NCBI GenBank assembly: GCA_965203445.1
Contig: OZ241883.1
Coordinates: 544,001-608,000 of the forward strand
DNA from: Candidatus Oxydemutator sp.
GTDB lineage: Bacteria > Pseudomonadota > Gammaproteobacteria > Poriferisulfidales > Oxydemutatoraceae
DNA: 64,000 bases
Reading direction: 5' to 3'
The translations under genes and the position numbers were made by a program. The notes beneath the pieces are model-generated. The model saw only the letters and a program-made list of their open reading frames with translations, was not told the origin of the DNA and searched no databases. This document shows positions 25,222 through 64,000 of the stretch, one piece after another (positions within the stretch are counted from its first letter, which is position 1; each line of letters begins with the position of its first letter).

Positions 25222-28200
25222 CTACTGAATCGGAAACGTCCGGCGCCGACCCTTGTTCTCTATCACGAAATATCGATCGGCGGACAACACCTCGCCGTCA
25301 AAGTCCACGTCCGCGTCCACCGCGTAATGGCCGGCCGCGGCCGCGGCGCGGTAGTCGCCCGCACCCAACGACGACAAGTTGTACACGCGTATCAATACTT
25401 CGTCCCGCTCATCAATCACGCCGTTTCGATCCACGTCGCCCGCGACCATCGCATACACGCCCGCCCCCACTGCAATCTGCCCGCCCCCGTGCGACTGCCC
25501 GACGCGGAAGTCCACGCAGTAGTCCGCCTCGCAATCGGCGCCCGTGGTCGCGGCCGCCGGCATCGCCGACATCACCGACAGATGGTTGCGGTGGTGGATC
25601 AGCACGTACAGGTCCTCCCCTTCGGACAGCTCCGCCTCAAAGCGCACGCCGCCCAATGACAGCGCGTCCGCCACCGACGACGCCGCCTCGTTTATCCCCG
25701 CGATGCGACCGTCGCTCAACAGCAGACCCGCGGCGCGACCGCCCGTCGGCGGCCGCGACGACGCGGCCGCGGTCGTGCTCTCGCCGGTGCGCAACTCCAC
25801 CAGCACCCAGTCCACTATCGTCGAGGTGACACTGGCCAGGCCGACCGCCGCGCCCGCGTGCGGCACCGTCGTCGTCACCGGGTGCCCCCACGGCAACGCG
25901 CCGTACGGCTGGCGCCTCGGCAACAAGCCCGCCAAGTCGCTCCTCATCCGACCGGCCCCGGCAAGCAACGCCCCCTGCAAAACCACTCGTGCGTCCACCA
26001 CTACGACCCTCTCGCTGAAAATGCCAACGTCCGCAAACGACGGCGTCCCCAGCTCCGCCAGATGGGTGCCGCAATTCGGGCAGCCCGTCAGCCTCAAACG
26101 AAACCGCTCGCGGCCCTCGTCCCCCCTGCCGTCGCTCGGCACGCCCACCTCTATCCTCGCCACGCCCGCCTCATTCAGCACCACGCTCCCGGTAAACGGC
26201 AGCGAAACCACCGAGCGCACGCCGGCGGCGCCACGCCCCTCTACGTGCACCGCGGCCAGGTCCTCGTGCGTCAAACCCTCGGACGCGGCGGCAATCTCAT
26301 AGTCCACGACCACCGCCCGATCACCGCCGCCACTCAACGCGATCGTGAACGTCGCGGTAGTGCTTTCGCTCACCGTCGCGGACGTCGCCGCCACCGTCAC
26401 CTGACTCAGTTCATTGGCCTCTATCGTCGTACGCGCAACGGTGCTCGGCACGCCTAAAACCACGCGCGCAGGCGCCCCCGTGAGCCTCGCGCCCGTCAAC
26501 GTCACCGCCAGCACCTCGGACAACTCGGGCTCGCCGTCCACGCGCACCCTCAACGAAAACGACGCGCTGACGGCGCCCGATTCGATGGCCACGCTGCTCG
26601 CAGTCACGCCGACAAAGTCGGCGGCGTCGACTTCGCCGCCACCCACCGACCAATCCCAACTCGCACGCACCCCCGGCGGCAAGGCCTGCGGCAAGCGCAC
26701 CACGTAACTCGCGGTGCCGCCTTCCGACACCGTCTCGCTGCCGGTGAGCGTCGGGGCAAGACTCACCGCCGGCTGCGCCTCCCGCTGCGACGTGCGACGC
26801 GCCGCCTCCGTGTCGGTAGCGCCGCCGAACACCAGCACCGGGTAATCAAACACGCTGCCGAAGTCCCACGGACTGTCGTCGTTCAAGTTGCCGTCGCCTA
26901 TCCGATCCAAGCCGTCCACGTTCAACTGATCCCAACCCGCATAGATCGTGCCCGCGGCCGTCGTCGGGACGCGCAACTCGCTCGACGTCTTCGAGGTGTC
27001 GTCCGAACTCGGCGCATTCGTTCCGCAGCAACGGCTCAAGCCGCTGCGCTCGGCGTCAAAATAACTCGACTCCACCACGGCGCCGACTACCCGGTTGCCT
27101 ATCAGACCGCCGGCCGTGGCCGTCCCCGTCGTTACCCCGACCGAGTAGCTGGCGCTGACCACCGACGCGCCGCCGGCTTCGCCCACCAGACCGCCCGCGT
27201 TGCTTTCCTCCGCATGCACCTCCACGTCGGCGTAACTCGCCACCAGCCCGCCGTAATGACCCCCTATCAAACCGCCCACTCCCGAGGCGCCGGATATGCG
27301 ACCGCCGATCACGTAACTCGCCGCCACCTTGCCCTCGTTGCGGCCCACCAGCGCACCGGTATAGGTGCTGCTGCGACCCAAGTCCCCTAAGGCCACCCGC
27401 GCGTTGCGCAAGCCCACGTTGCGGATCACGCCGTCGGCGCCGACGGCGCCGAACAAACCCACGTGATACCGCTGCCCGTCCCCGGCCATCGTCAGATTGC
27501 TGATGACGTGGCCGTTGCCTTCAAAAACGGCGCTGTAGGCATCCCCCGGAAGGTCTTCAAGCCTGACGCCCCCGCCTATCGGCGTCCAGTCCGGGATGTC
27601 CGACAAGTCCAGGTCGGCCGACAACTCGTAGCCGGTGCACGTTCTCGGACAGGTCTGCATCCCGTCGAAAACGGGAAACGCCGCAAAATAAGCGGCCCTG
27701 TTGGCATCGCTCACGCCCGCTATCCCGACACCGCCCAGGTCGTAGCGGATCGCCGCCAACTGCGACGTCGTCGCCACGTCTATCAAGGTGTCGCCGTCGT
27801 CGTTGTAGGCTATTCCGTCGCTGAACGCAATGGTGGTCCTGACGGAAACCGGCGCGCCCAGATCCACGCCACGCGCGGGCGCCCCCGTGAGCCGCGCGCC
27901 CGTCAACGTTACCACCAGCACCTCGGACAACTCGGACACGTCGTCATCGCGCACCTCCACCGAAAACGACGCGCTGACGGCGCCCGAGACGACGACCACG
28001 GTGCTTGCGGTCACGCCGACAAAGTCGGCGGCGTCGACGTCGCCGCCGCCCACCGACCAATCCCAACGCACGCTCACCCCCGGCGGCAAGGCCTGTGGCA
28101 AGCGCACCACGTAACTCGCGCTCTCGCCTTCCGACACCGTCGCGCTGCCGGTGAGCGTCGCCACAAGCCTCACCTTCGGCTGCGCCTCCTGCTGCGACGT

Positions 28201-31200: not shown

Positions 31201-34200
31201 CGAACTCGGCGCATTCGTTCCGCAGCAACGGCTCAAGCCGCTGCGCTCGGCGTCAAAATAACTCGACTCGACCACGGCGCCGACTACCCGGTTCCCTATC
31301 AGACCGCCGGCCGTGGCCGTCCCCGTCGTTACCCCGACCGAGTAACTGGCGCTGACCACCGACGCGCCGCCGGCTTCGCCCACCAGACCGCCCGCGTTGC
31401 TTTCCTCTGCATGCACCTCCACGTCGGCGTAACTCGCCACCAGACTGCCGTAATGACCCCCTATCAAACCGCCCACTCTCGAGGCGCCGGATACGCGACC
31501 GCCACTGACGTAACTTGCCGCTACTTTGCCCTCGTTGCGGCCCACCAGCGCACCGGTATAGGTGCTGCTGCGACCCAAGTCCACCCGCGCGTTGCGCAAA
31601 CCGACGTTGCGGATCGCGCCGTCGGCGCCGACGGCGCCGAACAAACCCACGTGATACCGCTGCCCGTCCCCGGTCACCCGCAAATTGCTGATGACGCGGC
31701 CGTTGCCTTCAAAAACGGCAGTGTAATAATCCACCGGATATTCCACCCCCGAGCCCCCGCCTATCGGCGTCCAATCCGCTATGCTGTCCAAGTCCAGGTC
31801 GGCAGACAACTCGTAGCCGGTGCACGTGCTGGGACAGGTCCGTTTCTCGTCGAAAAAGGGAAACGCCGCATAATAAGCGGCCCTGTTCGCACTGCTCACG
31901 CCCGCCAACCCGACACCGCCCAGGTCGTAGCGTATCGCCGCCAACTGCGACGTCGTCTCCACGTCTATCAAGGTATCGCCGTCGCCGTTGTAGATTGTTT
32001 CGTCGCTCGCCTCGATGATGGTCCTGACGGAAACCGGCATGCCCAGATCCACGCCGCGCGCGGGCGCCCCCGTGAGCCTCGCGCCCGTCAACGTCACCAC
32101 CAGCACCTCGGAAAACTCGGGCGCGTCGTCGTCGCGCACCCCCACCGAAAACGACGCGCTGACGGCGCCCGATTCGATGGCCACGCTGCTCGCGGTCACG
32201 CCGACAAAGTCGGCGGCGTCGACTTCGCCGCCGCCCACCGACCAATCCCAACGCGCACGCACCCCCGGCGGCAAGGCCTGCGGCAAGCGCACCACGTAAC
32301 TCGCGGTGCCGCCTTCCGACACCGTCTCGCTGCCGGCGAGCGTCGGGGCAAGACTCACCGCCGGCTGCGCCTCCCGCTGCAACGTGCGACGCGCCACCTC
32401 CGTGTCGGTAGCGCCGCCGAACACCAGCACCGGGTAATCGAACACGCTGCCGAAGTCCCACGGCGCGTCGTCGTTCAAGTCGCCGTCGCGTCCCCGATCC
32501 ACGCCGTCCACGTCCAACTGGTCCCAACCGGCGTAGATCGTGCCCGCGGTCGTCGTCGGGACGCGCAACTCGCTCGACGTCTTCGAGGTGTCGTCCGGAC
32601 TCGGCGCATTCGTTCCGCAGCAACGGCTCAGACCGCTGCGCTCGGCGTCAAAATAACTCGACTCGACCACGGCGCCGACTACCCGGTTGCCTATCAGACC
32701 GCCGGCCGTGGCCGTCCCCGTCGTTACCCCGACCGAGTAGCTGGCGCTGACCACCGACGCGCCACCGGCTTCGCCCACCAGACCGCCCGCGTTGCTTCCC
32801 TCCGCATGCACCTCCACGTCGGCGTAACTCGCCACCAGCCTGCCGTAATGACCCCCTATCAAACCGCCCACTCTCGAGGCGCCGGATACGCGACCGCCAC
32901 TCACGTAACTCGCCGCCACCTTGCCCTCGTTGCGGCCCACCAGCGCACCGGTATAGGTGCTGCTGCGGCCCAAGTTCATCCGCGCGTTGCGCAAGCCCAC
33001 GTTGCGGATCACGCCGGCGGCGCCGACGGCGCCGAACAAACCCACGTGATACCACGACCCGCTCCTGGTCACCCGCAAATTGCTGATGACGTGGCCGTTG
33101 CCTTCAAAAATGGCGCTGTACGCATCCCCCGGAAGGTCTTGAAGCCCGACCCCCCCGCCTAACGGCGTCCAGTCCGGGATGCCGGACAAGTCCAGATCGT
33201 TGGACAACTCGTAGCCGGTGCACGTGCTCGGACAGGTCCGTTTCTCGTCGAAAAAGGGAAACGCCGCATAATAAGCGGATTTGTTAGTCTTGCTCACGCC
33301 CGCCGGCCCGACACCGCCCAGGTCGTAGCGTATCGCCGCCAACTGCGACGTCGTCTCCACGTCTATCAAGGTGTCGCCGTCGCCGTTGTAGATTGTTTCG
33401 TCGCTCGCCTCGATGATGGTCCTGACGGAAACCGGCATGCCCAGATCCACGCCACGCGCGGGCGCCCCCGTGAGCCTCGCGCCCGTCAACGTCACCACCA
33501 GCACCTCGGAAAACTCGGGCGCGTCGTCATCAAACACCCCCACCGAAAACGACGCGCTGACGGCGCCCGATTCGATGACCACGCTGCTCGCAGTCACGCC
33601 GACAAAGTCGGCGGCGTCGGCTTCGCCGCCGCCCACCGACCAATCCCAGCTCGCACGCACCCCCGGCGGCAAGGCCTGCGGCAAGCGCACCACGTAACTC
33701 GCGGTGCCGCCTTCCGACACCGTCTCGCTGCCGGCGAGCGTCGGGGCAAGACTCACCGCCGGCTGCGCCTCCCGCTGCGACGTGCGACGCGCCTGCACCG
33801 TTTCGGTGGAGCCGCCGAACACCAGCACCGGGTAATCGAACACGCTGCCGAAGTCCCACGGACTGTCGTCGTTCAAGTCCCCGTTGTCACCCTGATCCAA
33901 GCCGTCCACGTTCAACTGATCCCAACCCGCATAGATCGTGCCCGCGGTCGTCGTCGGGACGCGCAATTCGCTCGACGTCTTCGAGGTGTCGTCCGGACTC
34001 GGCGCATTCGTTCCGCAGCAACGGCTCAAGCCGCTGCGCTCGGCGTCAAAATAACTCGACTCGACCACGGCGCCGGCAACCCGGTTGCCTATCAGACCGC
34101 CGGCCGTGGCCGTCCCCGTCGTTACCCCGACCGAGTAGCTGGCGCTGACCACCGACGCGCCACCGGCTTCGCCCACCAGACCGCCCGCGTTGCTTTCCTC

Positions 34201-58200: not shown

Positions 58201-61200
58201 CTCGTTGTCTCCCACCAGCGCACCTATAAACAAGCTATCACCACCCATTTCCACCCGCGCGTTGTGCAAGCCCACGTTGCGGATCACGCCGCCGGCGCCC
58301 ACCCTGCCGAACAAACCTATCTGCCACTCCCCGTCCCTGGCCACCCGCAAATTGCGGATGACGTGGCCGTTGCCTTCAAAAACGGCGGTGTAAGCATCCC
58401 CCGGCACGGCACGCGGAACCCCCCCGCCCAGCGGCGTCCAGCCTGGGCCCGGGGCCGGGTTCACACTGGACAGATCCAGGTCGGCCGACAACTCGTAGCC
58501 GGCGCACGTGCCCGGACAGGTCTGCTTCTCGTCGTAATGGGGAAACGCCGCCCGATAAGCCCGATAAGCGGCCTCGTTGGCACTGCTCACGCCCGCCAGC
58601 CCGGCACCGCCCAGGTCGTGGCGGATCATCGCCAACTGCGACGTCGTCGCCACCTCTATCAAGTTGTCGTCATCAAAGTCGTAGTCTATCTGGTCGCTCG
58701 TCTCGATCGTGGTCCTGACGGAAACCGGCACGCCCAAACTCACGTGGCGCGGCGCCCCGGTGAGCCTCGCGCCCGTCAACGTTACCACCAGCACCTCGGA
58801 CAACTCAGGCACGTCGTCATCGAACACTACCACCGAAAACGACGCGCTGACGGCGCCCGAGGCGATAACCACGCTGCCCGCGGTCGTGCCGACAAAGTCG
58901 TCGGCGCCGACGTCGTCGCCACCCACCGCCCAGCTCCAACTCGCGGTCACCCCCGCCGGCAAGACCAGCGGCAGACTCACCACGTAACTCGCGGTGCCGC
59001 CTTCCGACGTGGTCTCGCTGCCGACGAACGTCACCGCAAGAATTACCCGCGGCTGCGCCTGCTGCTGCGACGTGCGACGCATCGCCATAGTCTCGGTAGC
59101 GCCGCCGAACACCAGCACCGGGTAATCAAACACGCTGCCGAAGTCCCACGGCGCGTCGTCGTTGTAGTCGTCGTCGCCTCCCTGATCCACGCGATCCACG
59201 TTCAACTGGTCCCAACCCTCGTAGATGCCCGCGGCCGTGGTGGGGGCGTACAACTGGCTCGACCTCCTCGGGACGACGTTGTCCAGACCCCGCGCAAACG
59301 TTCCGCAGCAACTGCTCTGGCCGCTGCGCTCCTGGTCAAAATAACTCGACTGCACCAGGGCGCTGGCAGCCCCGCTCCCTATCAAACCGCCGATGCTGGA
59401 CACGCCCGGCGCCCCCGTCGTTTCCCCAACGGAGTAACTGGCGCTCACCACCGCCCCGAGACTGATTTCGCCTATCAGACCGCCCACCACGCTTTCCTCT
59501 GCATACACTTCCACGTCGGCGTAACCCGCCACCAGCCTGCCGTAATGAGCACCCGCCAAACCGCCCACCGCGGAGGCGCCGGATACGCGACCGCCACCGG
59601 CGTAACTCGCCGCCACTTCGCCCTGGTTGAATCCCACCAGCGCGCCTACAAAATAACCGCCGTGCACCCGTGCGTTACGCAAGCCCACGTTGCGGATGGT
59701 GCCGCCGGCACCCACGGCGCCGAACAAACCTATCTGATACCACCCGTCCCTAGCCACCCGCAAATTGCGAATGACGTGGCCGTTGCCTTCAAAAACGGCG
59801 GTGTAGGCATCCCCCGGGAAGGTTGCAGGCCCGACCCCTCCGCCTATCGGCGTCCAGCCCGGGCGCGGGGCCGGGTTCACGCCGGACAGATCCAGGTCGG
59901 CCGACAACTCGTAGCCGGCGCACGTGCCGGGACAGGTGCGCACCTCGTTGTACAGGGGAAACGCCGCCAGATACGCGGCCCTGTTCGCGTCGCCCACGAC
60001 GCCCGCCAGCCCGGCACCGCCCAGGTCGTGGCGGATCGCCGCCAACTGCGACGTCGTCGCCACCTCTATCAAGTTGTCGTCATCAAAGTCGTAGTCTATC
60101 TCGTCGCTCACCTCGATCGTGGTCCTGACCGAAAGCGGCACGCCCAGACTCACGCGGCGCGGCGCCCCGGTGATCCTCGCGCCCGTCAACGTTACCACCA
60201 GTACCTCGGAAAACTCGGGCACGTCGTCATCGAGCACCCCGACCGAAAACGACGCGCTGCTAGCGCCGGAGCCGATGACTACGGCGCCGGTCGTGTTGAC
60301 AAAGTCGGCGGCGTCGGCTTCGCCGCCACCCACCGTCCAATCCCAGCTCGCGGTCACCCCTCTCGGCAGGATCACCGGCAGACTCACCACGTAACTCGCG
60401 GTGCCGCCTTCCGGCACGGTAACGCTGCCGGTGAACGCCGGCACAAGAATTATCCGCGGCTGCGCTTCCTGCTGCGACGTGCGACGTATCGCCATAGTCT
60501 CGGTAGCGCCACCGAACACCAACACCGGGTAATCAAACACGCCGCCGAAATCCCACGGCGCGTCGTCGTTCAAATCGCCGTCGTCTCCCCGATCCACGTC
60601 GTCCACGTTCAACTTGTCCCAACCCGCATAGATGGTGCCCGTCGCCGTAGTGGGACCAATCAACTCGCCTGACGTCTTCGAGGTGTTGTCCGGACTCGGC
60701 ACGTTCGCTCCACAGCAACGGCTCCGGCCGCTGCTCTCGGCGTCAAAATAACTCGACTCCAGCGTGGCGCCGACCACCCTGTTCCCTATCAAGCCACCGA
60801 CCAGACCGGCCCCCGTCGTTGCCCCGATGGAGTAACTGGCGCTCACTACCGACGCGCCACCGCTTGCGCCCACCAGACCGCCCACGGTACCCAATCCATG
60901 CACTTCCACGTCGGCGTAACTCGCCACCACTCTGCCGAAATGAGACCCTATCAAGCCGCCCACCGAAAACGCGCCGGATACGCGACCGCCACTGACGTAA
61001 CTCGCCGCCACTTTGCCCCGGTTGGAACCCACCAGCGCGCCTATATAAGTACCATTATTACCCACGCTCACCCGCGCGTTGCGCAAACCCACGTTGCGGA
61101 TCACGCCGACGTCGCTGACGACGCCGAACAAACCCATGCTGTACCACGGGCGATCATTCCTGGTTATCGTCAGATCGCTGATAACGCGGCCGTTGCCCTC

Positions 61201-64000
61201 AAAAACGGCGCTGTAAGGATTCCTCAAACGGTGTGTGAGCGTGGTGGCCTCTCCGCCTATCGGCTTCCAGTTCAAGCCGGACAGATCCAGGTCGGCCGAC
61301 AACTCGTAGCCGGTGCACGTGCCCGGACAGGTCTGCTTCTCGTCGTAATGGGGAAACGCCGCCCGATAAGCCCGATAAGCGGCCTCGTTGGCACTGCTCA
61401 CGCCCGCCAGCCCGGCACCGCCCAGGTCGTGGCCGATCGCCGCCAACTGCGACGTCGTCGCCACCTCTATCAAGGTGTCGTCATCAAAGTCGTAGTCCAT
61501 CTGGTCGCTCGTCTTGATCGTGGTCCTGACGGAAACCGGCACGCCCAAACTCACGTGGCGCGGCGCCCCGGTGAGCCTCGCGCCCGTCAACGTTACCACC
61601 AGCACCTCGGACAACTCAGGCACGTCGTCATCGAACACCCTGACCGAAAACGACGCGCTGCTCGCGCCGGAGCCGATGGCCACGCTGCCAGTCGTGCCGA
61701 CAAAGTCGTCGGCGTCGACGTCGCCGCCGCCCACCGCCCAATCCCAACGCGCGGTCACCCCCGCCGGCAAGACCAGCGGCAGACTCACCACGTAACTCGC
61801 GGTGCCGCCTTCCGACACCGTCTCGCTGCCGGTGAGCGTCGCCGCAAGAATTACCCGCGGCTGCGCCTGCTGCTGCGACGTGCGACGCATCGCCATAGTC
61901 TCGGTAGCGCCGCCGAACACCAGCACCGGGTAATCAAACACGCTGCCGAAGTCCCACGGCGCGTCGTCGTTGTAGTCGTCGTCGCCTCCCTGATCCACGC
62001 GATCCACGTTCAACTGGTCCCAACCCTCGTAGATGCCCGCGGCCGTGGTGGGGGCGTACAACTGGCTCGACCTCCTCGGGACGACGTTGTCCAGACCCCG
62101 CGCAAACGTTCCGCAGCAACTGCTCTGGCCGCTGCGCTCCTGGTCAAAATAACTCGACTGCACCAGGGCGCTGGCAGCCCCGCTCCCTATCAAACCGCCG
62201 ATGCTGGACACGCCCGGCGCCCCCGTCGTTTCCCCAACGGAGTAACTGGCGCTCACCACCGCCCCGAGACTGATTTCGCCTATCAGACCGCCCACCACGC
62301 TTTCCTCTGCATACACTTCCACGTCGGCGTAACCCGCCACCAGCCTGCCGTAATGAGCACCCGCCAAACCGCCCACCGCGGAGGCGCCGGATACGCGACC
62401 GCCACCGGCGTAACTCGCCGCCACTTCGCCCTGGTTGAATCCCACCAGCGCGCCTACAAAATAACCGCCGTGCACCCGTGCGTTACGCAAGCCCACGTTG
62501 CGGATGGTGCCGCCGGCACCCACGGCGCCGAACAAACCTATCTGATACCACCCGTCCCTGGCCACCCGCAAATTGCGAATGACGTGGCCGTTGCCTTCAA
62601 AAACGGCGGTGTAGGTATCCCCCGGAAAGGCCGCAGGCCCGACCCCCCCGCCTATCGGCGTCCAGCCCGGGCGCGGGGCCGGGTTCACGCCGGACAGGTC
62701 CAGGTCGGCCGACAACTCGTAGCCGGCGCACGTGCCGGGACAGGTGCGCACCCCGTTGTACAGGGGAAACGCCGCCAGATACGCGGCCCTGTTCGCGTCG
62801 CCCACGACGCCCGCCAGCCCGGCACCGCCCAGGTCGTGGCGGATCGCCGCCAACTGCGACGTCGTCGCCACCTCTATCAAGTTGTCGTCATCAAAGTCGT
62901 AATCTATCCGGTCGCTCACCTCGATCGTGGTCCTGACCGAAAGCGGCACGCCCAGACTCACGCGACGCGGCGCCCCCGTGATCCTCGCGCCCGTCAACGT
63001 TACCACCAGTACCTCGGAAAACTCGGGCACGTCGTCATCGAGCACCCCGACCGAAAACGACGCGCTGACGGCGCCGGAGGCGATGGCCACGCTGCCGGTC
63101 GTGTTGACGAAGTCGGCGACGTCGGCTTCGCCGCCACCCACCGTCCAATCCCAACGCGCGCGCACTCCCGTCGGCAAGACCAGCGGCAGACTCACCACGT
63201 AACTCGCGGTGCCGCCTTCCGACGTGGTCTCGCTGCCGGCAAGCATCGGCGTAAGAATCACCTGCTGCGCCTGCTGCTGCGACGTGCGACGTATCGCCAT
63301 AGTCTCGGTAGCGCCACCGAACACCAACACCGGGTAATCAAACACGCCGCCGAAATCCCACGGCGCGTCGTCGTTCAAATCGCCGTCGTCTCCCCGATCC
63401 ACGTCGTCCACGTTCAACTTGTCCCAACCCGCATAGATGGTGCCCGTCGCCGTAGTGGGACCAATCAACTCGCCTGACGTCTTCGAGGTGTTGTCCGGAC
63501 TCGGCACGTTCGCTCCACAGCAACGGCTCCGGCCGCTGCTCTCGGCGTCAAAATAACTCGACTCCAGCGTGGCGCCGACCACCCTGTTCCCTATCAAGCC
63601 ACCGACCAGACCGGCCCCCGTCGTTGCCCCGATGGAGTAACTGGCGCTCACTACCGACGCGCCACCGCTTGCGCCCACCAGACCGCCCACGGTACCCAAT
63701 CCATGCACTTCCACGTCGGCGTAACTCGCCACCACTCTGCCGAAATGAGACCCTATCAAGCCGCCCACCGAAAACGCGCCGGATACGCGACCGCCACTGA
63801 CGTAACTCGCCGCCACTTTGCCCCGGTTGGAACCCACCAGCGCGCCTATATAAGTGCTATTACTACCCACGCTCACCTGACCCACGCTCACCCGCGCGTT
63901 GCGCAAACCCACGTTGCGGATCACGCCGACGTCGCTGACGACGCCGAACAAACCCATGCTGTACCACGGGCGATCATTCCTGGTTATCGTCAGATTGCTG
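25222..64000 (-). CDS. Giant repetitive surface/secreted protein (>12,900 aa, 5' end outside the window): tandem GLUG-type/Calx-beta-like modules and a dockerin-like C-terminus
   Basis: No stop codon in the frame from 64000 to the TAG at 25222-25224. The Met at 63957 is internal: upstream codons read SNLTITRNDRPWYS, matching another module. Repeated motifs GLFG, GALVG, VGGLIG, GGLVG, SYFD, PWDFG...YPVL, VSEG...DF...DDD.PE.SE and DYDxDDDxLIxV. Confidence 0.93.
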   Translation of the reverse strand, partial: SNLTITRNDRPWYSMGLFGVVSDVGVIRNVGLRNARVSVGQVSVGSNSTYIGALVGSNRGKVAASYVSGGRVSGAFSVGGLIGSHFGRVVASYADVEVHGLGTVGGLVGASGGASVVSASYSIGATTGAGLVGGLIGNRVVGATLESSYFDAESSGRSRCCGANVPSPDNTSKTSGELIGPTTATGTIYAGWDKLNVDDVDRGDDGDLNDDAPWDFGGVFDYPVLVFGGATETMAIRRTSQQQAQQVILTPMLAGSETTSEGGTASYVVSLPLVLPTGVRARWDWTVGGGEADVADFVNTTGSVAIASGAVSASFSVGVLDDDVPEFSEVLVVTLTGARITGAPRRVSLGVPLSVRTTIEVSDRIDYDFDDDNLIEVATTSQLAAIRHDLGGAGLAGVVGDANRAAYLAAFPLYNGVRTCPGTCAGYELSADLDLSGVNPAPRPGWTPIGGGVGPAAFPGDTYTAVFEGNGHVIRNLRVARDGWYQIGLFGAVGAGGTIRNVGLRNARVHGGYFVGALVGFNQGEVAASYAGGGRVSGASAVGGLAGAHYGRLVAGYADVEVYAEESVVGGLIGEISLGAVVSASYSVGETTGAPGVSSIGGLIGSGAASALVQSSYFDQERSGQSSCCGTFARGLDNVVPRRSSQLYAPTTAAGIYEGWDQLNVDRVDQGGDDDYNDDAPWDFGSVFDYPVLVFGGATETMAMRRTSQQQAQPRVILAATLTGSETVSEGGTASYVVSLPLVLPAGVTARWDWAVGGGDVDADDFVGTTGSVAIGSGASSASFSVRVFDDDVPELSEVLVVTLTGARLTGAPRHVSLGVPVSVRTTIKTSDQMDYDFDDDTLIEVATTSQLAAIGHDLGGAGLAGVSSANEAAYRAYRAAFPHYDEKQTCPGTCTGYELSADLDLSGLNWKPIGGEATTLTHRLRNPYSAVFEGNGRVISDLTITRNDRPWYSMGLFGVVSDVGVIRNVGLRNARVSVGNNGTYIGALVGSNRGKVAASYVSGGRVSGAFSVGGLIGSHFGRVVASYADVEVHGLGTVGGLVGASGGASVVSASYSIGATTGAGLVGGLIGNRVVGATLESSYFDAESSGRSRCCGANVPSPDNTSKTSGELIGPTTATGTIYAGWDKLNVDDVDRGDDGDLNDDAPWDFGGVFDYPVLVFGGATETMAIRRTSQQEAQPRIILVPAFTGSVTVPEGGTASYVVSLPVILPRGVTASWDWTVGGGEADAADFVNTTGAVVIGSGASSASFSVGVLDDDVPEFSEVLVVTLTGARITGAPRRVSLGVPLSVRTTIEVSDEIDYDFDDDNLIEVATTSQLAAIRHDLGGAGLAGVVGDANRAAYLAAFPLYNEVRTCPGTCAGYELSADLDLSGVNPAPRPGWTPIGGGVGPATFPGDAYTAVFEGNGHVIRNLRVARDGWYQIGLFGAVGAGGTIRNVGLRNARVHGGYFVGALVGFNQGEVAASYAGGGRVSGASAVGGLAGAHYGRLVAGYADVEVYAEESVVGGLIGEISLGAVVSASYSVGETTGAPGVSSIGGLIGSGAASALVQSSYFDQERSGQSSCCGTFARGLDNVVPRRSSQLYAPTTAAGIYEGWDQLNVDRVDQGGDDDYNDDAPWDFGSVFDYPVLVFGGATETMAMRRTSQQQAQPRVILAVTFVGSETTSEGGTASYVVSLPLVLPAGVTASWSWAVGGDDVGADDFVGTTAGSVVIASGAVSASFSVVVFDDDVPELSEVLVVTLTGARLTGAPRHVSLGVPVSVRTTIETSDQIDYDFDDDNLIEVATTSQLAMIRHDLGGAGLAGVSSANEAAYRAYRAAFPHYDEKQTCPGTCAGYELSADLDLSSVNPAPGPGWTPLGGGVPRAVPGDAYTAVFEGNGHVIRNLRVARDGEWQIGLFGRVGAGGVIRNVGLHNARVEMGGDSLFIGALVGDNEGEVLASYVIGGRVSGNAGVGGLIGGHYAGRLVASYADVEVRADGANVGGLIGEAGGASVVSASYSVGRVTGIYPIGGLIGNRVAGAVVESSYFDQERSRQGGCCKPRASHQLRAPTTAVGTLYAGWDKLHVDDVDQGDDGDYNDDAPWDFGTVFDYPVLVFGGATETVAMRRTSQQEAQPRIILAPAFTGSVTVPEGGTASYVVSLPVILPRGVTASWDWTVGGGEADAADFVATTGAVVIGSGASSASFSVRVFDDDVPELSEVLVVTLTGARLTGAPRRVSLGVPLSVRTTIEASDEIDYDVDGDDLIQVATTSRLAAIRYDLGGAGLAGVSSANRAAYLAAFPFFDVEQTCPGTCTGYELSADLDLAGEDWTPLGGAGTSDYYTAVFEGNGHVISNVTIRSANNGAARLDNVGLFGAVGAGGIIRNVGLDNVHTDVSGASMGAGALAGYNAGKVAACYVVGGGGQVRGGSALGGLVGGLDGGVVIASYADVPVHQRSPGRSVGGLIGAVANGGIVSASYALSRLTRDGDGLQGSPSGGLVGDYLSGTLQTSYFDKQRSGQSACCGSNVPTTDNAPRTSVQLRAPTAAAGTIYEGWDRLNVDGVDHNGDYNDDAPWDFGSTFDYPVLVFGGATDTQAARRTSQQRALEVTVAATLAGSETVSEGGTASYVVRLPMVLPAGVSASWSWAVGGGDVSADDFVGTTAGSVVIASGAVSASFSVRVFDDDVPELSEVMVVTLTGVRLAGAPAHVGLGVPLSVRTTIEVSDEIDYDFDDDNLIEVATTSQLSAIRYDLGGAGLAGVSSANEAAYRAYQAAFPVYDEARTCPGTCKGYELAADLDLSSVNPAPGTGWTPIGGLAQGFFFVYPEEVGYAAVFEGNGHVIRNLRMEYRRLFSRDGWSGTGLFGAVGANGRIRNVGLRNVLMNSGSSFREVGALVGYNRGKVAASYVIGGRVSLFSAGGGLIGVNDGEVVASYADVEVIGSRVGGLVGLVYFGSSVKASYSVGKVTNTLDRSSSSGGLIGARGDGGYIGPGYVDSSYFDSQRSGEGRCCGPKRSRDLRIPTTAAGTIYAGWDKLDVDGVDQNDDNNLNDDSPWDFGSVFDYPVLVFGGATETRQARRTSQQEAQPKVNLAATITGSATVSEGEVASFVVRLPEPLPPGVIMRWGWVVGGGEVDTADFVGATTGNAVIASGADRTSFSVRVRDDDEPEFSETLVATLSNVRLTGAPVRGVDLGVPVSAVTTIEVSDEIDYNGDDDTLIDVETTSQLAAIRYDLGGVGLAGVSDANRDAYLAAFPFFGKQETCPRTCTGYELVNDLDLSSVNPAPGPGWTPIGGGVMLHDLPGDAYTAVFEGNGHVIRNMRVARAGQWYRVGLFGAVGAAGTIRNVGLRDARVSLGSNSEFTGALVGRNEGTVAASYVSGGRISGVWFVGGLIGGHYGRLVASYADVEVQAGESNVGGLAGEVGGASVVSASYSVGRTAGASPVGGLVGNRVVGAVVESSYFDAERSGQRDCCGLNAPDPDDARQTSSELRAPTTAAGTIYAGWDRLNVDRVDQNDDDDYNDDAPWDFGGAFDYPVLVFGGATETMAMRRTSQQETQPRASLAATLTGSVTVSEGESAGYVVSLPQALPPGVSVRWDWSVGGDEVTVADFVGVTGSVVVASGAVSASFSVRIFDDAIPELSEVLVVTLSNARLTGAPARNVDLGAPVSVKTTIEFSDVPDYDVDDDTLIEVATTSQLAAIRYDLGGAGIAGVSTANRAAYRVAFPLFGVFDEIRSCPSTCTGYELAADLDLSSVEPHPAPGWTPLGGGIRSEDLVGDSSVDFYTAVFEGNGHVISNLRVVRMGRWYFTGLFGAVSASGVIRNVGLRNARVEVRFDNVGGSLYTGALAGDNRGQVAASYVIGGRISGTWHVGGLVGRNLGRVVASYADVAVHADGNSVGGLVGEAGGASVVRASYSVGRPTGDSPGGLMGIRNVGAVVESSYFDAERSGQDRCCGSNVRDSDDARQTSHGLRTPTTAAGTIYAGWDQLNVDGVDQEGDGDYNDDAPWDFGSAFDYPVLVFGGATETRLARRTSQRETQPQVGLAAALTGSATVAEGEVASYVVSLPVILPTGVTASWNWTVGGGEADIADFVGTTGIVAIGSGASSASFSVEVRDDDAPELSEALVVTLASARLTGAPQYVRLGVPASVMTIIELSDGTGYDDDNDTLIDVATTSQLAAIRYDLGGVGIAGVVGTANRAAYFAAFPFFDEKRTCPRTCTGYELANDLDLSSVEPAPGAGWTPLGGGIPDDNYSVGYYTAVFEGNGHVISNLRMNRSGQWFYMGLFGAVGADGRIRNVGLHNARVSLGRDADHVGALVGTSEGGVAASYVSGGRISGGAFVGGLLGSHYGGLVASYADVRVHADESNVGGLVGATGFASVVSASYSVGRTTGGLPSGGLIGNMAAGTVVWSSYYEAGRSGQSACCGFRAPDPDNTSKTSGQLRAPTMAAGTIYEGWDQLNVDGVARRGDDDLNDDAPWDFGSVFDYPVLVFGGATETMAMRRTLQREAQPKASLAATLAGSATVSEGESASYVVRLPQALPAGVRVRWDWSVGGGDVDAADFVGVTASTVAIESGAVSASFSVTIFDDDEPEFSEVLVVTLTGARITGAPARGVDLGAPVSVRTMIEASDGTTYNGDGDTLIDVETTSQLAAIRYDLGGVGLAGVGKTNKSAYYAAFPFFDEKRTCPSTCTGYELSADLDLSDVADWTPIGGGGTPDSYTAVFEGNGHVISNLTMTGDGQRYRVGLFGAVGADGVIRNVGLRNARVDLGRSSTYTGALVGRNEGKVAASYVSGGRVSGAFGVGGLIGGHYGSLVASYADVEVQAEGSNAGGLVGEAGGASVVSASYSVGVTTGTSTVGGLIGRKHAAAALKSSYFDAERSGLSRCCGTNVPTTDTAPRTSSQLRVPTTTAGTIYAGWDQLDVDGVDRRRDGDYNDDAPWDFGSVFEYPILVFGGATETSAMRRASQREAQPKVSLAPTLAGSATVSEGSTASYVVGLPEALPPGASVRWDWEVGGDQVSAADFVTTTGTVAIASGAVSASFSVGVRDDDEPELSEVIVVTLSDARLTGAPARGVDLGAPVSVRTMIEASDQRDYDDDNDGLIDVATTSQLAAIGHDLGGVGIAGVSSANRAAYYAAFPVFGETQTCPRTCTGYELSADLDLSGIPDWTPLGGGSGVESPVDYYTAVFEGNGHVISNLTMTGDGQRYHVGLFGAVGADGAIRNVGLRNARVDLGRSSTYTGALVGRNEGTVAASYVSGGRISGASGVGGLIGGHYGGLVASYADVGVHAEESNAGGLVGVAGGASVVSASYSVGATTGSGTVGGLIGNRVAGAVVESSYFDAERSGLSRCCGTNAPSPDDTSKTSSELRVPTTAAGTIYAGWDQLNVDGLDRGRDGDLNDDAPWDFGSVFDYPVLVFGGSTGTVQARRTSQQEAQPKVRLVATLAGSATVSEGESASYVVRLPQALPPGVSVRWDWSVGGGDVDADDFVGVTASTVVVVSGAVSASFSVEVRDDDVSELSEVLVVTLTGARLTGAPARGVDLGAPVSVRTTIAFSDGIAYNDDGDTLIDVATTSQLAAIGHDLGGVGIAGVSSANRAAYFAAFPVFDGTKTCPRTCTGYELSADLDLSDIADWTPIGGGVRLEDLPGDAYSAVFEGNGHVISNLTMTGDGQRYHVGLFGAVGADGVIRNVGLRNARVALGDLGRSSTYTGALVGRNEGKVAASYVIGGRISGASGVGGLIGGHYGGLVASYADVGVHAEGSNAGGLVGEAGGASVVSASYSVGVTTGTATAGGLIGNRVVGAVVESSYFDAERSGLSRCCGTNAPSPDDTSKTSSQLRVPTTTAGTIYAGWDQLNVDGLDRIGDGNLNDDAPWDFGTVFEYPVLVFGGSTETMQARRTLQREAQPKANFAATLVGSTTVSEGERASYVVRLPEPLPPGVIVRWGWVVGGEVDTADFVGATTGNAVIASGADSTSFSVRVRDDDEPELPEALVVTLSNARLTGLPARGVSLGVPVSVVTTIEASDEIDYDFDDDTLIEVETTSQLAMIRHDLGGAGLAGVSDANRDAYLAAFPFFGKQETCPRTCTGYELVNDLDLSSVNPAPGPGWTPIGGGVMLHDLPGDAYTAVFEGNGHVIRNMRVARAGQWYRVGLFGAVGAAGTIRNVGLRDARVSLGSNSEFTGALVGRNEGTVAASYVSGGRISGVWFVGGLIGGHYGRLVASYADVEVQAGESNVGGLAGEVGGASVVSASYSVGRTAGASPVGGLVGNRVVGAVVESSYFDAERSGQRDCCGLNVPDPDDARQTSSELRAPTTAAGTIYAGWDRLNVDRVDQNDDDDYNDDAPWDFGGAFDYPVLVFGGATETEAMRRTSQQETQPRVSLAATLTGSVTVSEGESASYVVSLPQALPPGVSVRWDWSVGGDEVTVADFVGVTGSVVVASGAVSASFSVGVFDDAIPEFSEVLVVTLASARLTGAPARGVDLGVPVSVKTTIEFSDALDYDVDDDNLIEVATTSQLAAIRYDLDGAGLAGVSSANRAAYLAAFPLFDEFDQVQTCPGTCAGYELSADLDLSSVEPHPGTGWTPLGGGVEVQDFPGDYYTAVFEGNGHVISNLRVARDEGWYQMGLFGAVSASGTIRNVGLRNARVEVAASGFGQSPFVGALVGDNRGQVAVSYVIGGRVSGGFGVGGLIGNNAGRVVASYADVAVHAFSTVGGLVGQADLASVVSASYSVGRVTGFFSPIGGLIGSGFRNSVVESSYFDKERGVQSDCCGSKTSHQLRAPTTAAGTIYAGWDKLNVDRVDQGDDGDYNDDAPWDFGTAFDYPVLVFGGATETRLARRTSQRETQPPVGLAATLTGSATVAEGEVASYVVSLPVILPAGVTASWNWMVGGDEVDADDFVGTTGIVAIGSGASSASFSVRVFDDDAPEFPEVLVVTLASARLAGAPQDVTVGAPASVSTIIEFSDGSDYNDDNDTLIDVATTSRLAAIRYDLGGVGPAGVSDANRAAYYAAFPFFDEKRTCPSTCTGYELSGDLDLSGIPDWTPIGGGSGVESPPDSYTAVFEGNGHVISNLTMTGDGQWYHVGLFGAVGADGVIRNVGLRNARVALGALGRSSTYTGALVGRNEGKVAASYVIGGRISGASRVGGLIGGHYGSLVASYADVEVHAEGSNAGGLVGEAGGASVVNASYSVGVTTGTSTVGGLIGRKHAAAALESSYFDSERSGLSRCCGTNVPTTDTAPRTSSQLRVPTTATGTIYAGWDKLNVDNVDRRRDGNYNDDAPWDFGSVFDYPVLVFGGATETMAMRRASQREAQPAVSFAPTLAGSATVSEGGTATYVVSLPGALPLETTASWDWSVGGEVDAADFVGVTAGSVAIVSGAVSASFSLRVRDDDEPELSEVLVVALASARLTGAPQYVRLGVPASVMTIIELSDGTDYDDDNDTLIDVATTSQLAAIRYDLGGAGIAGVVGKANRLAYFAAFPVFDEKQTCPRTCTGYELAADLDLSSVEPAPGAGWTPLGGGIPDNNYSVDYYTAVFEGNGHVISNLRMNRSGQWFYMGLFGAVGADGRIRNVGLHNARVSLGGNSEHVGALVGTNEGAVAASYVSGGRISGALYIGGLIGGHYGSLVASYADVEVRASASNAGGLVGATDFASVVSASYSVGRTTGGLPSGGLIGNIAAGTVVWSSYYDAERSGQSACCGFGAPDPDNTSKTSSQLRAPTTATGTIYAGWDQLNVDGVDQGRDDDLNDDSPWDFGSVFDYPVLVFGGATDTESARRTLQREAQPKASLAATLTGSATVSEGESASYVVRLPQALPAGVTVSWDWSVGGGDVDAADFVGVTASTVAIESGAVSASFSVEVRDDDEPELSEVIVVTLTGARLTGAPARGVDLGAPVSVRTIIEASDEIDYDDDNDGLIDVATTSRLAAIRYDLGGVGLAGVSDANRAAYYAAFPFFDEKRTCPSTCTGYELSGDLDLSDVADWTPIGGGVGLQDLPGDAYTAVFEGNGHVISNLRVATDGQRYHVGLFGAVGAAGVIRNVGLRNARVDLGRSSTYTGALVGRNEGKVAASYVIGGRISGASGVGGLIGGHYGRLVASYADVEVHAEGSNAGGLAGEAGGASVVSASYSVGVTTGTATAGGLIGNRVVGAVVESSYFDAERSGLSRCCGTNVPTTDTAPRTSSQLRVPTTTAGTIYAGWDQLNVDGLDRIGDGNLNDDAPWDFGSVFDYPVLVFGGSTETVQARRTSQREAQPAVSLAPTLAGSETVSEGGTASYVVRLPQALPPGVRARWDWSVGGGEVDADDFVGVTASSVAIESGAVSASFSLRVRVDDEPELSEVLVVTLTGARLTGAPAHVSLGVPLSVRTTIEASGAKDYDVDDDNLIEVATTSQLAAIRYDLGGVGLAGVSGDANRAAYLAAFPVFDVEQICPGTCTGYELSADLDLSGIPDWTPIGGGSGVEYPVDSYTAVFEGNGRVVSNLTMTGDGQRYHVGLFGAVGADGAIRNVGLRNARVVLGRSSTYTGALVGRNEGTVAASYVSGGRISGASRVGGLIGGHYGGLVASYADVEVHAEGSNAGGLVGEAGGASVVSASYSVGATTGSGTVGGLIGNRVVGAVVESSYFDAERSGLSRCCGTNAPSPDDTSKTSSELRVPTTTAGTIYAGWDQLNVDGLDRGRDGDLNDDAPWDFGSVFDYPVLVFGGATDTEAARRTLQREAQPAVSLAPTLAGSETVSEGGTASYVVRLPQALPPGVRASWDWSVGGGEVDADDFVDAITGTVVIVSGAVSASFSLRVRVDGELEFSEVLVVTLTGARLTGAPAHVSVGVPVSVRTTIEGSGEIDYDLDNDTLIEVATTSQLAMIRYDLDGVGLAGVSGDANRDAYLDAFPVFDVEQTCPTTCTGYELSADLDLSSVEPAPGPGWTPLGGGVSPLLDEDYYTAVFEGNGHVISNMRMTRDGRLSHAGLFGAVSAVGVIRNVGLRDARVSLGNHSTYIGALVGRNEGKVAASYVSGGRISGVWAVGGLIGGNFGRLVASYADVEVHAGGANVGGLVGEAGGASVVSASYSVGEPTGATAGGLIGQRLAGAVVESSYFDTGRSLQASCCGTEPGDTDNVAPRTSSELRVPTTTAGTIYAGWDQLNVDGLDRGRDGNLNDDSPWDFGSVFDYPVLVFGGATDTEAARRTSQREAQPAVSLAPTLTGSETVSEGGTASYVVRLPQALPPGVRAHWDWSVGGGEVDADDFIGATTGNVAIVSGAVSASFSVAVRDDDAPEFSEVLVVTLTGARLTGAPARVSLGVPLSVRTTIEASDETIYNGDGDTLIDVETTSQLAAIRYDLGGVGPAGVSSANKAAYYAAFPFFDEKRTCPSTCTGYELSADLDLSGIPDWTPIGGGSGVEAPVDYYTAVFEGNGRVVSNLTMTGDGQRYHVGLFGAVGAGGVIRNVGLRNARVVLGRSSTYTGALVGRNEGKVAASYVIGGRVSGASRVGGLIGGHYGGLVASYADVEVHAEESNAGGLVGEAGAASVVSASYSVGVTTGTTTAGGLIGNRVVGAVVESSYFDAERSGLSRCCGTNAPSPDDTSKTSSELRVPTTTAGTIYAGWDQLNVDGLDRGRDGNLNDDSPWDFGSVFDYPVLVFGGATDTEAARRTSQREAQPAVSLAPTLTGSETVSEGGTASYVVRLPQALPPGVRARWDWSVGGGEVDADDFVGTTAGNVVIVSGAVSASFSLRVRDDGMPELSEVLVVTLTGARLTGAPAHVSLGVPLSVRTIIEASDETIYNGDGDTLIDVETTSQLAAIRYDLGGVGPAGVSKTNKSAYYAAFPFFDEKRTCPSTCTGYELSNDLDLSGIPDWTPLGGGVGLQDLPGDAYSAIFEGNGHVISNLRVTRSGSWYHVGLFGAVGAAGVIRNVGLRNARVVLGRSSTYTGALVGRNEGKVAASYVSGGRISGASGVGGLIGGHYGRLVASYADVEVHAEESNAGGLVGEAGGASVVSASYSVGVTTGTATAGGLIGNRVAGAVVESSYFDAERSGLSRCCGTNAPSPDDTSKTSSELRVPTTTAGTIYAGWDQLNVDGLDQGDNGDLNDDSPWDFGSVFDYPVLVFGGSTETVQARRTSQREAQPAVSLAPTLAGSETVSEGGTASYVVRLPQALPPGVRASWDWSVGGGEADAADFVGVTASSVVIESGAVSASFSVGVFDDDAPEFSEVLVVTLTGARLTGAPARGVDLGMPVSVRTIIEASDETIYNGDGDTLIDVETTSQLAAIRYDLGGVGPAGVSKTNKSAYYAAFPFFDEKRTCPSTCTGYELSNDLDLSGIPDWTPLGGGVGLQDLPGDAYSAIFEGNGHVISNLRVTRSGSWYHVGLFGAVGAAGVIRNVGLRNARMNLGRSSTYTGALVGRNEGKVAASYVSGGRVSGASRVGGLIGGHYGRLVASYADVEVHAEGSNAGGLVGEAGGASVVSASYSVGVTTGTATAGGLIGNRVVGAVVESSYFDAERSGLSRCCGTNAPSPDDTSKTSSELRVPTTTAGTIYAGWDQLDVDGVDRGRDGDLNDDAPWDFGSVFDYPVLVFGGATDTEVARRTLQREAQPAVSLAPTLAGSETVSEGGTASYVVRLPQALPPGVRARWDWSVGGGEVDAADFVGVTASSVAIESGAVSASFSVGVRDDDAPEFSEVLVVTLTGARLTGAPARGVDLGMPVSVRTIIEASDETIYNGDGDTLIDVETTSQLAAIRYDLGGVGLAGVSSANRAAYYAAFPFFDEKRTCPSTCTGYELSADLDLDSIADWTPIGGGSGVEYPVDYYTAVFEGNGRVISNLRVTGDGQRYHVGLFGAVGADGAIRNVGLRNARVDLGRSSTYTGALVGRNEGKVAASYVSGGRVSGASRVGGLIGGHYGSLVASYADVEVHAEESNAGGLVGEAGGASVVSASYSVGVTTGTATAGGLIGNRVVGAVVESSYFDAERSGLSRCCGTNAPSSDDTSKTSSELRVPTTAAGTIYAGWDQLNVDGLDRGRDGDLNDDAPWDFGSVFEYPVLVFGGSTETMQARRTLQREAQPAVSLAPTLAGSETVSEGGTASYVVSLPQALPPGVRASWDWSVGGGEVDADDFVSVTASSVVIESGAVSASFSVGVRDDDEPEFSEVLVVALTGARLTGAPARGVDLGMPVSVRTIIEASDETIYNGDGDTLIDVETTSQLAAIRYDLGGVGPAGVSSANRAAYYAAFPFFDEKRTCPGTCTGYELSGDLDLDSIADWTPIGGGSGVESPVDYYTAVFEGNGRVISNLRVTGDGQRYHVGLFGAVSAVGTIRNVGLRNARVVLGHSSTYTGALVGRNEGKVAASYVIGGRISGASGVGGLIGGHYGGLVASYADVEVHAEESNAGGLVGEAGGASVVSASYSVGVTTGTATAGGLIGNRVVGAVVESSYFDAERSGLSRCCGTNAPSSDDTSKTSSELRVPTTTAGTIYAGWDQLDVDGEDRGRDGNLNDDSPWDFGSVFDYPVLVFGGATDTEAARRTSQREAQPAVSLAPTLAGSETVSEGGTASYVVRLPQALPPGVRARWDWSVGGGEVDADDFVGVTASSVAIESGTVSASFSLRVRVDGEPELSEVLVVTLTGARLTGAPAHVSLGVPLSVRTTIEVSGAKDYDVDDDNLIEVATTSQLAAIRYDLGGVGLAGVSGDANRAAYLAAFPVFDVEQICPGTCTGYELSADLDLSGIPDWTPLGGGSGVESPVDYYTAVFEGNGHVISNLTMTGDGQRYHVGLFGAVGAAGAIRNVGLRNARVDLGRSSTYTGALVGRNEGKVAASYVSGGRISGASGVGGLIGGHYGGLVASYADVEVHAEGSNAGGLAGEAGGASVVSASYSVGATTGSGTLGGLIGNRVVGAVVESSYFDAERSGLSRCCGTNAPSPDDTSKTSSELRVPTTTAGTIYAGWDQLNVDGLDRGRDGNLNDDAPWDFGSVFDYPVLVFGGSTGTVQARRTSQQEAQPKVRLVATLTGSATVSEGESASYVVRLPQALPPGVSVRWDWSVGGGDVDAADFVGVTASTVVVVSGAVSASFSVEVRDDDVSELSEVLVVTLTGARLTGAPARGVDLGAPVSVRTTIAFSDGIAYNDDGDTLIDVATTSQLAAIRYDLGGVGIAGVSDANRAAYFAAFPVFDGMQTCPRTCTGYELSADLDLSDIPDWTPIGGGVRLEDLPGDAYSAVFEGNGHVISNLTMAGDGQRYHVGLFGAVGADGVIRNVGLRNARVALGDLGRSSTYTGALVGRNEGKVAASYVIGGRISGASGVGGLIGGHYGGLVASYADVEVHAEESNAGGLVGEAGGASVVSASYSVGVTTGTATAGGLIGNRVVGAVVESSYFDAERSGLSRCCGTNAPSSDDTSKTSSELRVPTTAAGTIYAGWDQLNVDGLDRIGDGNLNDDSPWDFGSVFDYPVLVFGGATDTEAARRTSQREAQPAVSLAPTLTGSETVSEGGTASYVVRLPQALPPGVRASWDWSVGGGEVDAADFVGVTASSVAIESGAVSASFSLRVRVDGEPELSEVLAVTLTGARLTGAPARVVLGVPSTVARTTIEANELSQVTVAATSATVSESTTATFTIALSGGGDRAVVVDYEIAAASEGLTHEDLAAVHVEGRGAAGVRSVVSLPFTGSVVLNEAGVARIEVGVPSDGRGDEGRERFRLRLTGCPNCGTHLAELGTPSFADVGIFSERVVVVDARVVLQGALLAGAGRMRSDLAGLLPRRQPYGALPWGHPVTTTVPHAGAAVGLASVTSTIVDWVLVELRTGESTTAAASSRPPTGGRAAGLLLSDGRIAGINEAASSVADALSLGGVRFEAELSEGEDLYVLIHHRNHLSVMSAMPAAATTGADCEADYCVDFRVGQSHGGGQIAVGAGVYAMVAGDVDRNGVIDERDEVLIRVYNLSSLGAGDYRAAAAAGHYAVDADVDFDGEVLSADRYFVIENKGRRRTFPIQ
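26420..64000 (-). repeat. Tandem array of 27 modules of ~1.38-1.44 kb (the first truncated by the window edge)
   Basis: The PWDFG marker (plus strand tcccacgg) was counted 27 times between ~26864 and ~63356; mean spacing ~1404 bp. Confidence 0.9.

Follow-up and report, generated by a model that had tools for sequence, protein, structure and literature searches.

The window analysed here is a stretch of 64,000 nucleotides from the genome of Candidatus Oxydemutator sp. (GenBank assembly GCA_965203445.1, contig OZ241883.1), corresponding to contig positions 544001-608000. It encodes most of a protein of about 16,000 residues, presumably secreted, of an uncultured gammaproteobacterium. The protein is built of tandem modules, each consisting of a Calx-beta-fold domain and a GLUG-type beta-helix domain, and comparison of the module sequences strongly supports the view that they are mosaics made by intragenic recombination or gene conversion, with exchange that also reaches other giant genes of the same genome. 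The differences between modules are clustered at fixed sites, above all in short loops, in which the ratio of non-synonymous to synonymous substitution rates (dN/dS) is close to 1. The interpretation which we favour, with moderate confidence, is that the gene encodes a giant extracellular fibre, the modules of which are in concerted evolution through tandem duplication and gene conversion, while structurally tolerant loops drift. An earlier reading of the same DNA, hereafter called the original prediction, had proposed that recombination shuffles loop variants between modules and that the loops form a repertoire of binding surfaces, a multivalent variable-receptor array. That interpretation is partly supported: its recombination half was borne out, and its functional half was not favoured by the selection tests.

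Recombination among the modules

The genome consists of one contig of 2,378,814 bp, scored as 100 % complete. Module borders were set by splitting the translation of the giant open reading frame at the motif [DE]YP[IV]LVFGG. Anchor motifs occurred 26-27 times in the window, at a spacing of 453-488 amino acids, and the 27 modules counted in the original prediction correspond to 27 GLFG motifs, that is, to 26 complete modules and one module cut by the window edge. The complete gene has 33 full modules according to a profile search. The parts of the gene are as follows, in window positions unless otherwise given:

25222-63999, minus strand: the part of the giant open reading frame inside the window, a single open frame of 12,925 codons with an open 5' end
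25222-25224, minus strand: stop codon of the giant open reading frame
26821-63312, minus strand: 26 complete tandem modules of 461-480 amino acids each, from M01 (61909-63312) to M26 (26821-28227)
63313-63999, minus strand: the module cut at the window edge, represented by its C-terminal 229 residues and near-identical to the matching part of M02 (exact repeat of 582 nt)
25225-26820, minus strand: C-terminal piece of 532 residues, with the last Calx-like repeat, then an unassigned region, then a weak dockerin-type match
569225-617614, genome coordinates: the complete frame of 16,130 codons, which extends past the window end

Nucleotide identity between modules ranged from 73 to 98 %, with a median of 82 % and a homogenised C-terminal block. 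Near-twin modules were found at offsets of 2, 6-7 and 14 modules (M01/M03, 96 % identity; M07/M13, 96 %; M12/M26, 98 %; M18/M25, 97 %), and these offsets point to block duplications. Exact repeats were identified in an offset scan: 61842-62559 is the same as 59034-59751 (718 nt, offset of 2 modules), 53666-54279 the same as 45224-45837 (614 nt, offset of 6 modules) and 63274-63855 the same as 60469-61050 (582 nt, offset of 2 modules). These repeats are traces of block duplication or conversion in the recent past, and short-read assembly has difficulty with such places.

The nearest neighbour of a module shifts along the length of the module. The pairwise homoplasy index (PHI), calculated from 529 informative sites, was 0.569, compared with 0.659 ± 0.005 in permuted alignments (z = -18.8), and none of 1000 permutations gave a value as low. 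When 4 segments of the module were treated separately, each rejected the trees of the other three, with differences in log-likelihood of 144-478 and p ≤ 0.0011 in the approximately unbiased test (5000 replicates, which is below the number recommended for IQ-TREE). A copying model placed 207 breakpoints across the whole module, 5-16 in each 27-codon bin, with no focus on the flanks of the loops. Copied tracts frequently spanned 10-100 codons, with 93-99 % identity to the donor. One of the mosaics was mapped as follows:

39403-40800, minus strand: mosaic module M17, in which the nearest donor switches 11 times over 513 alignment columns, with tracts 95-100 % identical to the donor

The donors of M17 are, in order, M19, M10, M11, M15, M10, M21, M08, M20, M26, M10, M12 and M21. 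It is from PHI, the mutually rejecting segment trees and the copying-model maps that the modules are taken to be recombination mosaics.

Exchange extends beyond the gene itself. Genome-wide, 23 open frames carry about 235 profile matches to the helix domain and amount to 442 kb, or 18.6 % of 2.38 Mb. Six giant genes, of 16130, 9081, 10540, 3521, 9139 and 4326 codons, stand head to tail on one strand over 158 kb (569225-727874), and 3 of the junctions between them read TAG, 4 nt, ATG. Of 322 tiles of 150 nt, 117 were closer to another giant gene than to the rest of their own gene, and 72 were at least 98 % identical to another giant gene, mostly the neighbouring one of 10,540 codons. Among 123 modules parsed genome-wide, 16 variants of the loop past WTP[IL]GG (loop 1) were common to more than one gene, and 15 of the 23 recurrent loop-1 variants had more than one partner in the loop before GLFG (loop 2).

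All 23 peptide strings quoted in the original prediction were found in place, including the pairs from which it had argued that variants reassort independently. GVGLQDLPGDA at 40111-40143 is paired with VATDGQRYHV at 40033-40062, and at 34519-34551 and 33121-33153 it is paired with VTRSGSWYHV. Similarly TNVPTTDTAPRT, found at 49387, 42376 and 39568, occurs together with RKHAAAAL (49474 and 42463) or with NRVVGAVV (39655). The reassortment is far beyond chance, as judged from the PHI permutations, and the intragenic recombination or gene conversion put forward to account for it is upheld by PHI, by the conflict between segment trees, by the mosaic maps and by the tiles shared between genes. A literature search found no report of recombining GLUG module arrays, GLUG being mentioned there in passing only, and in the literature on giant proteins of sponge symbionts nothing was found on the GLUG module family.

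Variable sites and tests for selection in the loops

The variation sits at fixed sites, as originally proposed. In the alignment of the modules 167 of 513 columns were invariant, and the top 10 % of columns held 30 % of the summed entropy, the top 20 % holding 53 %. Entropy was correlated between adjacent columns (lag-1 autocorrelation 0.24, compared with a maximum of 0.18 across 2000 shuffles). The strongest peak was loop 1, at alignment columns 231-246 (2.32 bits, smoothed). About 12 further peaks of 1.1-1.6 bits included the loops before GLFG and past CCG, the inter-domain linker and one or two turns in each coil of the helix, which is more than had been listed in the original prediction. 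The three main loops are given here for M21:

34519-34551, minus strand: variable loop 1, GVGLQDLPGDA, past WTP[IL]GG
34441-34470, minus strand: variable loop 2, VTRSGSWYHV, before GLFG, where the variable last-turn stripe of the beta-helix begins
33976-34011, minus strand: variable loop 3, TNAPSPDDTSKT, past the CCG motif, missing (gapped) from roughly half the external homologues

When five coils were stacked, entropy was 0.15 bits in the GGLxG rung, 1.11 in the turn after the rung, 0.37 in the next ten residues and 1.27 in the last turn. The expectation that variable columns would cluster on the fold thus held for the helix, where they form two register stripes, a single face being judged from the coil register alone, but not for strand as compared with coil, which did not separate variable from conserved residues (0.67 vs 0.73 bits, p = 0.31). 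Entropy within the gene tracked that of 55 external homologues (Spearman rho 0.62, p 8e-34), and loop 1, like loop 3, was gapped in about half of these homologues. The 123 modules parsed genome-wide contained 85 distinct loop-1 and 84 distinct loop-2 sequences. Many loops had been described as rich in aromatic residues, and in the same 123 modules this was true of loop 2 (aromatic fraction 0.113) but not of loop 1 (0.073, compared with 0.069 overall).

Pairwise dN/dS, estimated by the Nei-Gojobori method, was 0.69 overall and 0.98, 1.26 and 1.06 in loops 1, 2 and 3, respectively, the values for the other seven regions being 0.33-0.88, and that for the helix-end loop (columns 401-425) 0.78. Counts of minimum changes gave 29 non-synonymous and 9 synonymous changes in the loops of the 12 youngest modules, compared with 194 and 114 in the rest (Fisher p = 0.15). 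For all 26 modules the corresponding numbers were 129 and 49 in the loops and 648 and 342 in the rest (Fisher p = 0.07). A per-site counting test on nine segment trees found 7 of 298 sites nominally positive, fewer than the approximately 15 that chance alone would give, and 50 nominally negative. None of the nominally positive sites among these 298 was in the three loops, for which the test gave region values of 1.00, 1.17 and 1.00. Synonymous change was raised in loop 1 (3.48 per site, compared with 1.98 overall, in the counting test). This would fit old or replaced segments that escaped homogenisation, or alignment noise, and is at odds with selection on amino acids.

The excess of non-synonymous change in the loops by which the original prediction proposed to judge a binding role was not seen, dN/dS being 0.98-1.26 and neither Fisher test significant. 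A selected binding repertoire or variable-receptor array is therefore unsupported, with loop dN/dS near 1 and no positive loop site. The diversity of the loops looks like tolerated drift, and a binding repertoire is unproven.

Module folds, domain family and genomic setting

At E ≤ 0.01 a search with a module matched no family in Pfam or NCBIfam, Glug and Calx-beta being visible at relaxed thresholds only. PF07581 (Glug) matched 10 of the 26 modules at E ≤ 0.1, with a best E of 9.3e-5 and all matches below the curated cut-off; M21, for instance, scored 18.6 bits against a cut-off of 20.5 (E 0.0025). PF03160 (Calx-beta) matched 7 of the 26 at E ≤ 0.1, again all below the cut-off (best E 0.0059), the score being 15.3 bits compared with a cut-off of 27. 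A sequence search with the module found no match in the PDB at E ≤ 1.

The second domain of the module, of 331 residues, was modelled on 69 sequences and is predicted to be a right-handed beta-helix (mean predicted local distance difference test (pLDDT) 92.3, predicted template modelling (TM) score 0.92). Its sole match in the PDB at E ≤ 0.001 with Foldseek was 3n6z (E 2e-5, TM 0.52/0.51), followed by the N-terminal beta-helix of the IgA1 proteases of S. pneumoniae and G. haemolysans. The whole-module model was built with the 26 paralogues only and had a pLDDT of 56.6, and just its Calx part (pLDDT 79-87) was used. The first approximately 135 residues of the module match the Calx-beta domain CBD1 2dpk (E 1.6e-6, TM on target 0.78, root mean square deviation 3.0 Å), and many further CBD1/CBD2 and integrin beta4 Calx chains were found with the same model. 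The Calx-like domain contains an acidic DDDxPExSE segment.

Among the 120 homologues listed for the helix domain (E ≤ 1e-18), 86 have precomputed PF07581 matches. In a library of 1.84 billion proteins, 22,911 cluster representatives matched at E ≤ 1e-3 and 2,440 at E ≤ 1e-30, and the best 150 representatives were mostly proteins thousands of residues long with 4-31 matched stretches each. The module therefore belongs to the large, known and uncharacterised GLUG family, which is often built into giant proteins.

At the start of every helix domain is an acidic DxDxDG-like segment (YNGDGDTLID or YDFDDDNLIE; in M21, for example, at window positions 34750-34790), and two cysteine pairs (CPxTC and CC) as well as an NDDxPWDFG motif are conserved in each. 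By eye, the acidic segments and cysteine pairs look like the calcium sites and disulfides of an extracellular protein. The invariant residues of the module are glycines, aromatics, cysteines and acidic motifs resembling calcium sites.

The N-terminus of the protein, outside the window, resembles a signal peptide of the Sec type by eye and is followed by two K319L-like PKD domains (E 5.7e-28). The dockerin-type calcium-binding match at the other end is weak and lies at residues 460-520 of the 532-residue C-terminal piece; Dockerin type I (PF00404) scored 20.4 and 19.0 bits, compared with a cut-off of 22.9 (E 6e-4 and 1.6e-3). No RTX or haemolysin-type family was found in these last 532 residues at E ≤ 1. 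On the same strand, 81 nt past the stop codon of the giant gene, starts a gene for an AcrB-family RND transporter (window 21884-25141, minus strand, E 1.4e-173). A set of genes resembling those for type II secretion or type IV pili lies at window positions 1923-8627 on the plus strand, some 16 kb from the giant gene on its 3' side:

1923-3497, plus strand: secretin
5341-7053, plus strand: T2SSE ATPase
7479-8627, plus strand: T2SSF platform protein

Three genomes of the same genus (1.6-1.8 Mb, 85-98 % complete) contained no match to the module with either a protein or a profile query. Nine of 18 other genomes of the family had matches, 26-120 in each at 35-45 % identity, and several of these have many frames of about 5,800-6,000 codons. 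The absence of matches from the three and their abundance in the nine suggest lineage-specific expansions of the module.

A tract of 27 G on the coding strand (genome 617587-617613) immediately precedes the GTG at which the signal-peptide-like sequence of the giant gene starts. With 27 G, an ATG just upstream of the tract is out of frame; a tract of 25 or 28 G would bring it into frame. The 5' end of the neighbouring gene, of 9,081 codons, is arranged in the same way with 25 G. The tract is thus a candidate slipped-strand on/off switch, with the reservation that homopolymer lengths in assemblies can be wrong. The genome has 13 G/C homopolymer runs of at least 12 nt, of which 5 coincide with the 5' ends of giant GLUG frames or lie shortly upstream of them (617587, 644946, 793242, 2324554 and 2328499). 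The upstream regions at 2324554 and 2328499 are paralogous and differ in tract length (13 compared with 19).

Five public sequencing runs contain parts of the stretch. In four of them, which were analysed further, the unitigs were at most 300 nt long. A run labelled as sponge metagenome yielded 6 small pieces in 3 of 30 bins, which is too little to name a habitat.

Interpretation and comparison with known systems

In the history which we consider the most probable, the array would have grown through tandem and block duplication, and unequal crossing-over together with short-tract gene conversion would keep reshuffling its own modules and would exchange segments with about 200 related modules in the other giant genes of the genome. 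Conversion would homogenise the scaffold. The tolerant parts, namely the cap loop past WTPIGG, the turns flanking the GGLxG rung and the loop past CCG, would drift nearly neutrally, and the reassortment of loops would be a by-product of recombination. Each module combines a Calx-beta domain with a right-handed GLUG beta-helix, whose entry segment is acidic and DxDxDG-like and in which two cysteine pairs are conserved. The protein would be exported and stiffened by calcium, and it may serve as a fibre or adhesin.

Several observations weigh against drift as the whole explanation. Loop 2 leans towards non-synonymous change (1.17-1.26), with 8 non-synonymous and 0 synonymous minimum changes in the 12 youngest modules, although this is not significant. 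Counting methods are weak in indel-rich loops and recombination blurs the trees; weak diversifying selection would therefore escape detection. The variable residues of the helix core are not random but form the two register stripes, and a binding edge would look alike. In a structural relative, the IgA1 protease of S. pneumoniae, the N-terminal beta-helix domain is reported to bind a protein, the substrate Fab (PMC7695701). Furthermore, the 48-kb frame without a stop, and a family that fills 18.6 % of a 2.38-Mb genome, argue that the giant proteins matter to the cell.

The diversity of the loops could accordingly be selected, as a recombination-built repertoire of binding surfaces on a multivalent variable adhesin or receptor array, perhaps genome-wide and with on/off switching. 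We regard this as possible, though clearly the less likely explanation. Besides the stripes along the helix and the protein-binding relative, it would draw on the reality of the recombination and its extension to other genes, on the 85 loop-1 and 84 loop-2 sequences in 123 modules with several partners for 15 of 23 recurrent loop-1 variants, and on the long G/C homopolymer tracts found at the 5' end in 5 of the 23 GLUG frames. It is opposed by a loop dN/dS of about 1 and not above, with no loop site passing even a nominal test, by variation at the same positions in unrelated family members, by breakpoints that are not focused on the loop flanks and by the lack of aromatic enrichment in loop 1. 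The further proposal of a programmed system, in which more than 200 recombining GLUG/Calx-beta modules in about 23 genes would act together with the homopolymer tracts to vary fibres and binding edges, is more doubtful still. If true, it would amount to a combinatorial adhesin or decoy repertoire in a bacterium with a small genome.

Other explanations are improbable to different degrees. Exact repeats of up to 718 nt at whole-module offsets, unitigs of at most 300 nt, none of which bridges a module, and a small number of alternative joints with weak support and sides of 20-26 letters are what might be seen if mosaics and module order were assembly chimeras of a highly repetitive gene. Such chimeras are very unlikely, since the mosaic tracts are short and imperfect (mostly 10-100 codons, 93-99 % and not 100 % identical to the donor, unlike a read-level mis-join) and the 48-kb frame is intact, free of stops and frameshifts; the assembly is moreover the single complete contig described above, and at a likeness of at least 97 % two runs from a single sample covered the local sequence in all 30 bins, and a run of another study covered it in 28. 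It is scarcely more probable that the modules are enzymes, either beta-helix glycan lyases or hydrolases or protease accessory domains, with loops that set substrate specificity. The weaker Foldseek matches do include pectate lyases, tailspikes and other beta-helix enzymes, but at E of about 0.4 or worse and TM of 0.1-0.25. GLUG does stand beside the N-terminal region of Peptidase_M26 (PF05342) in 3 of the 120 listed homologues, but the Pfam searches of the modules gave no catalytic family, and the invariant residues are the glycines, aromatics, cysteines and acidic calcium-site-like motifs described above. Targeted hypermutation of the loops, for example by a diversity-generating retroelement, would concentrate variation in short segments on a conserved scaffold, as seen here, and can nevertheless be virtually dismissed: RVT_1 (PF00078) had 0 matches in the complete genome in a search which matched 3 control genomes, the loop variants differ through indels and replacement of whole segments, and identical variants recur across modules and genes.

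Concerted evolution with drifting loops corresponds to the usual pattern of tandem-repeat surface proteins, in which recombination keeps the scaffold alike and tolerant loops differ, and the present evidence is insufficient to count the giant protein as a new variable-receptor system. What is unusual is the scale and not the principle, with 33 GLUG/Calx-beta modules in one protein and a family which occupies almost one fifth of a small complete genome, which had no match in the closest relatives searched, and several genes of which have possible slipped-strand switches. Should the loop diversity prove functional, the protein would exemplify, in a bacterium, multivalent binding diversity that recombination builds within single polypeptides, and the large, uncharacterised GLUG family would gain a function.

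The solved members of the PF07581 GLUG family (3n6z, which is BACOVA_03286, a 'putative IgA1 protease', and the IgA1 protease structures 7uvl, 7jgj and 6xja) have the same fold as the helix domain, and the family likewise has repeated GGLxG rungs and many copies in giant proteins. Unlike the solved members, the modules here fall below the Pfam cut-off, have no attached peptidase domain and pair each helix with a Calx-beta domain, the pair being repeated 33 times. The fold of the latter is like that of Calx-beta PF03160 in the Na+/Ca2+ exchanger (CBD1: 2dpk, 3e9t), although the sequence match is weak. A giant GLUG frame of 4,083 codons in the same genome, one of the 23, shares the domain family, the putative dockerin-type C-terminus and growth by block duplication; its modules are 50-55 % identical to the present ones, and the present gene is four times longer.

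The RTX adhesins of Gram-negative bacteria (such as MpIBP, LapA and SiiE) are giant calcium-dependent proteins with Ig-like repeats and a C-terminal RTX or type I secretion signal. They resemble the giant protein in their very long extracellular tandem arrays of beta-rich repeats, homogenised by recombination and with likely calcium sites, and differ from it at both ends, its start being Sec-signal-like by eye and its C-terminal 532 residues holding no RTX family at E ≤ 1. In Mycoplasma genitalium MgPa, Neisseria pilE/pilS and Borrelia vlsE, silent cassettes donate to one expression site and diversifying selection is strong. The mosaic of variable segments, made by short-tract recombination among many copies, is common to these systems and the present gene, whereas here every copy is in an intact, expressed-looking frame and loop dN/dS is about 1. 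Of the marks of variation by gene conversion, mosaic recombination was thus found and an excess of non-synonymous change in the variable segments was not.

The giant symbiosis proteins Cag_663 and Cag_665 of Chlorobium chlorochromatii, as described in a preprint (bioRxiv 10.64898/2026.03.19.712371), have continuous haemagglutinin-type helices tied to type I secretion and are not built of homologous modules in which GLUG and Calx-beta are combined. Both are very large beta-helical extracellular proteins which bind calcium, as would be expected here from the motifs, and those of C. chlorochromatii belong to a bacterium that lives attached to a partner.

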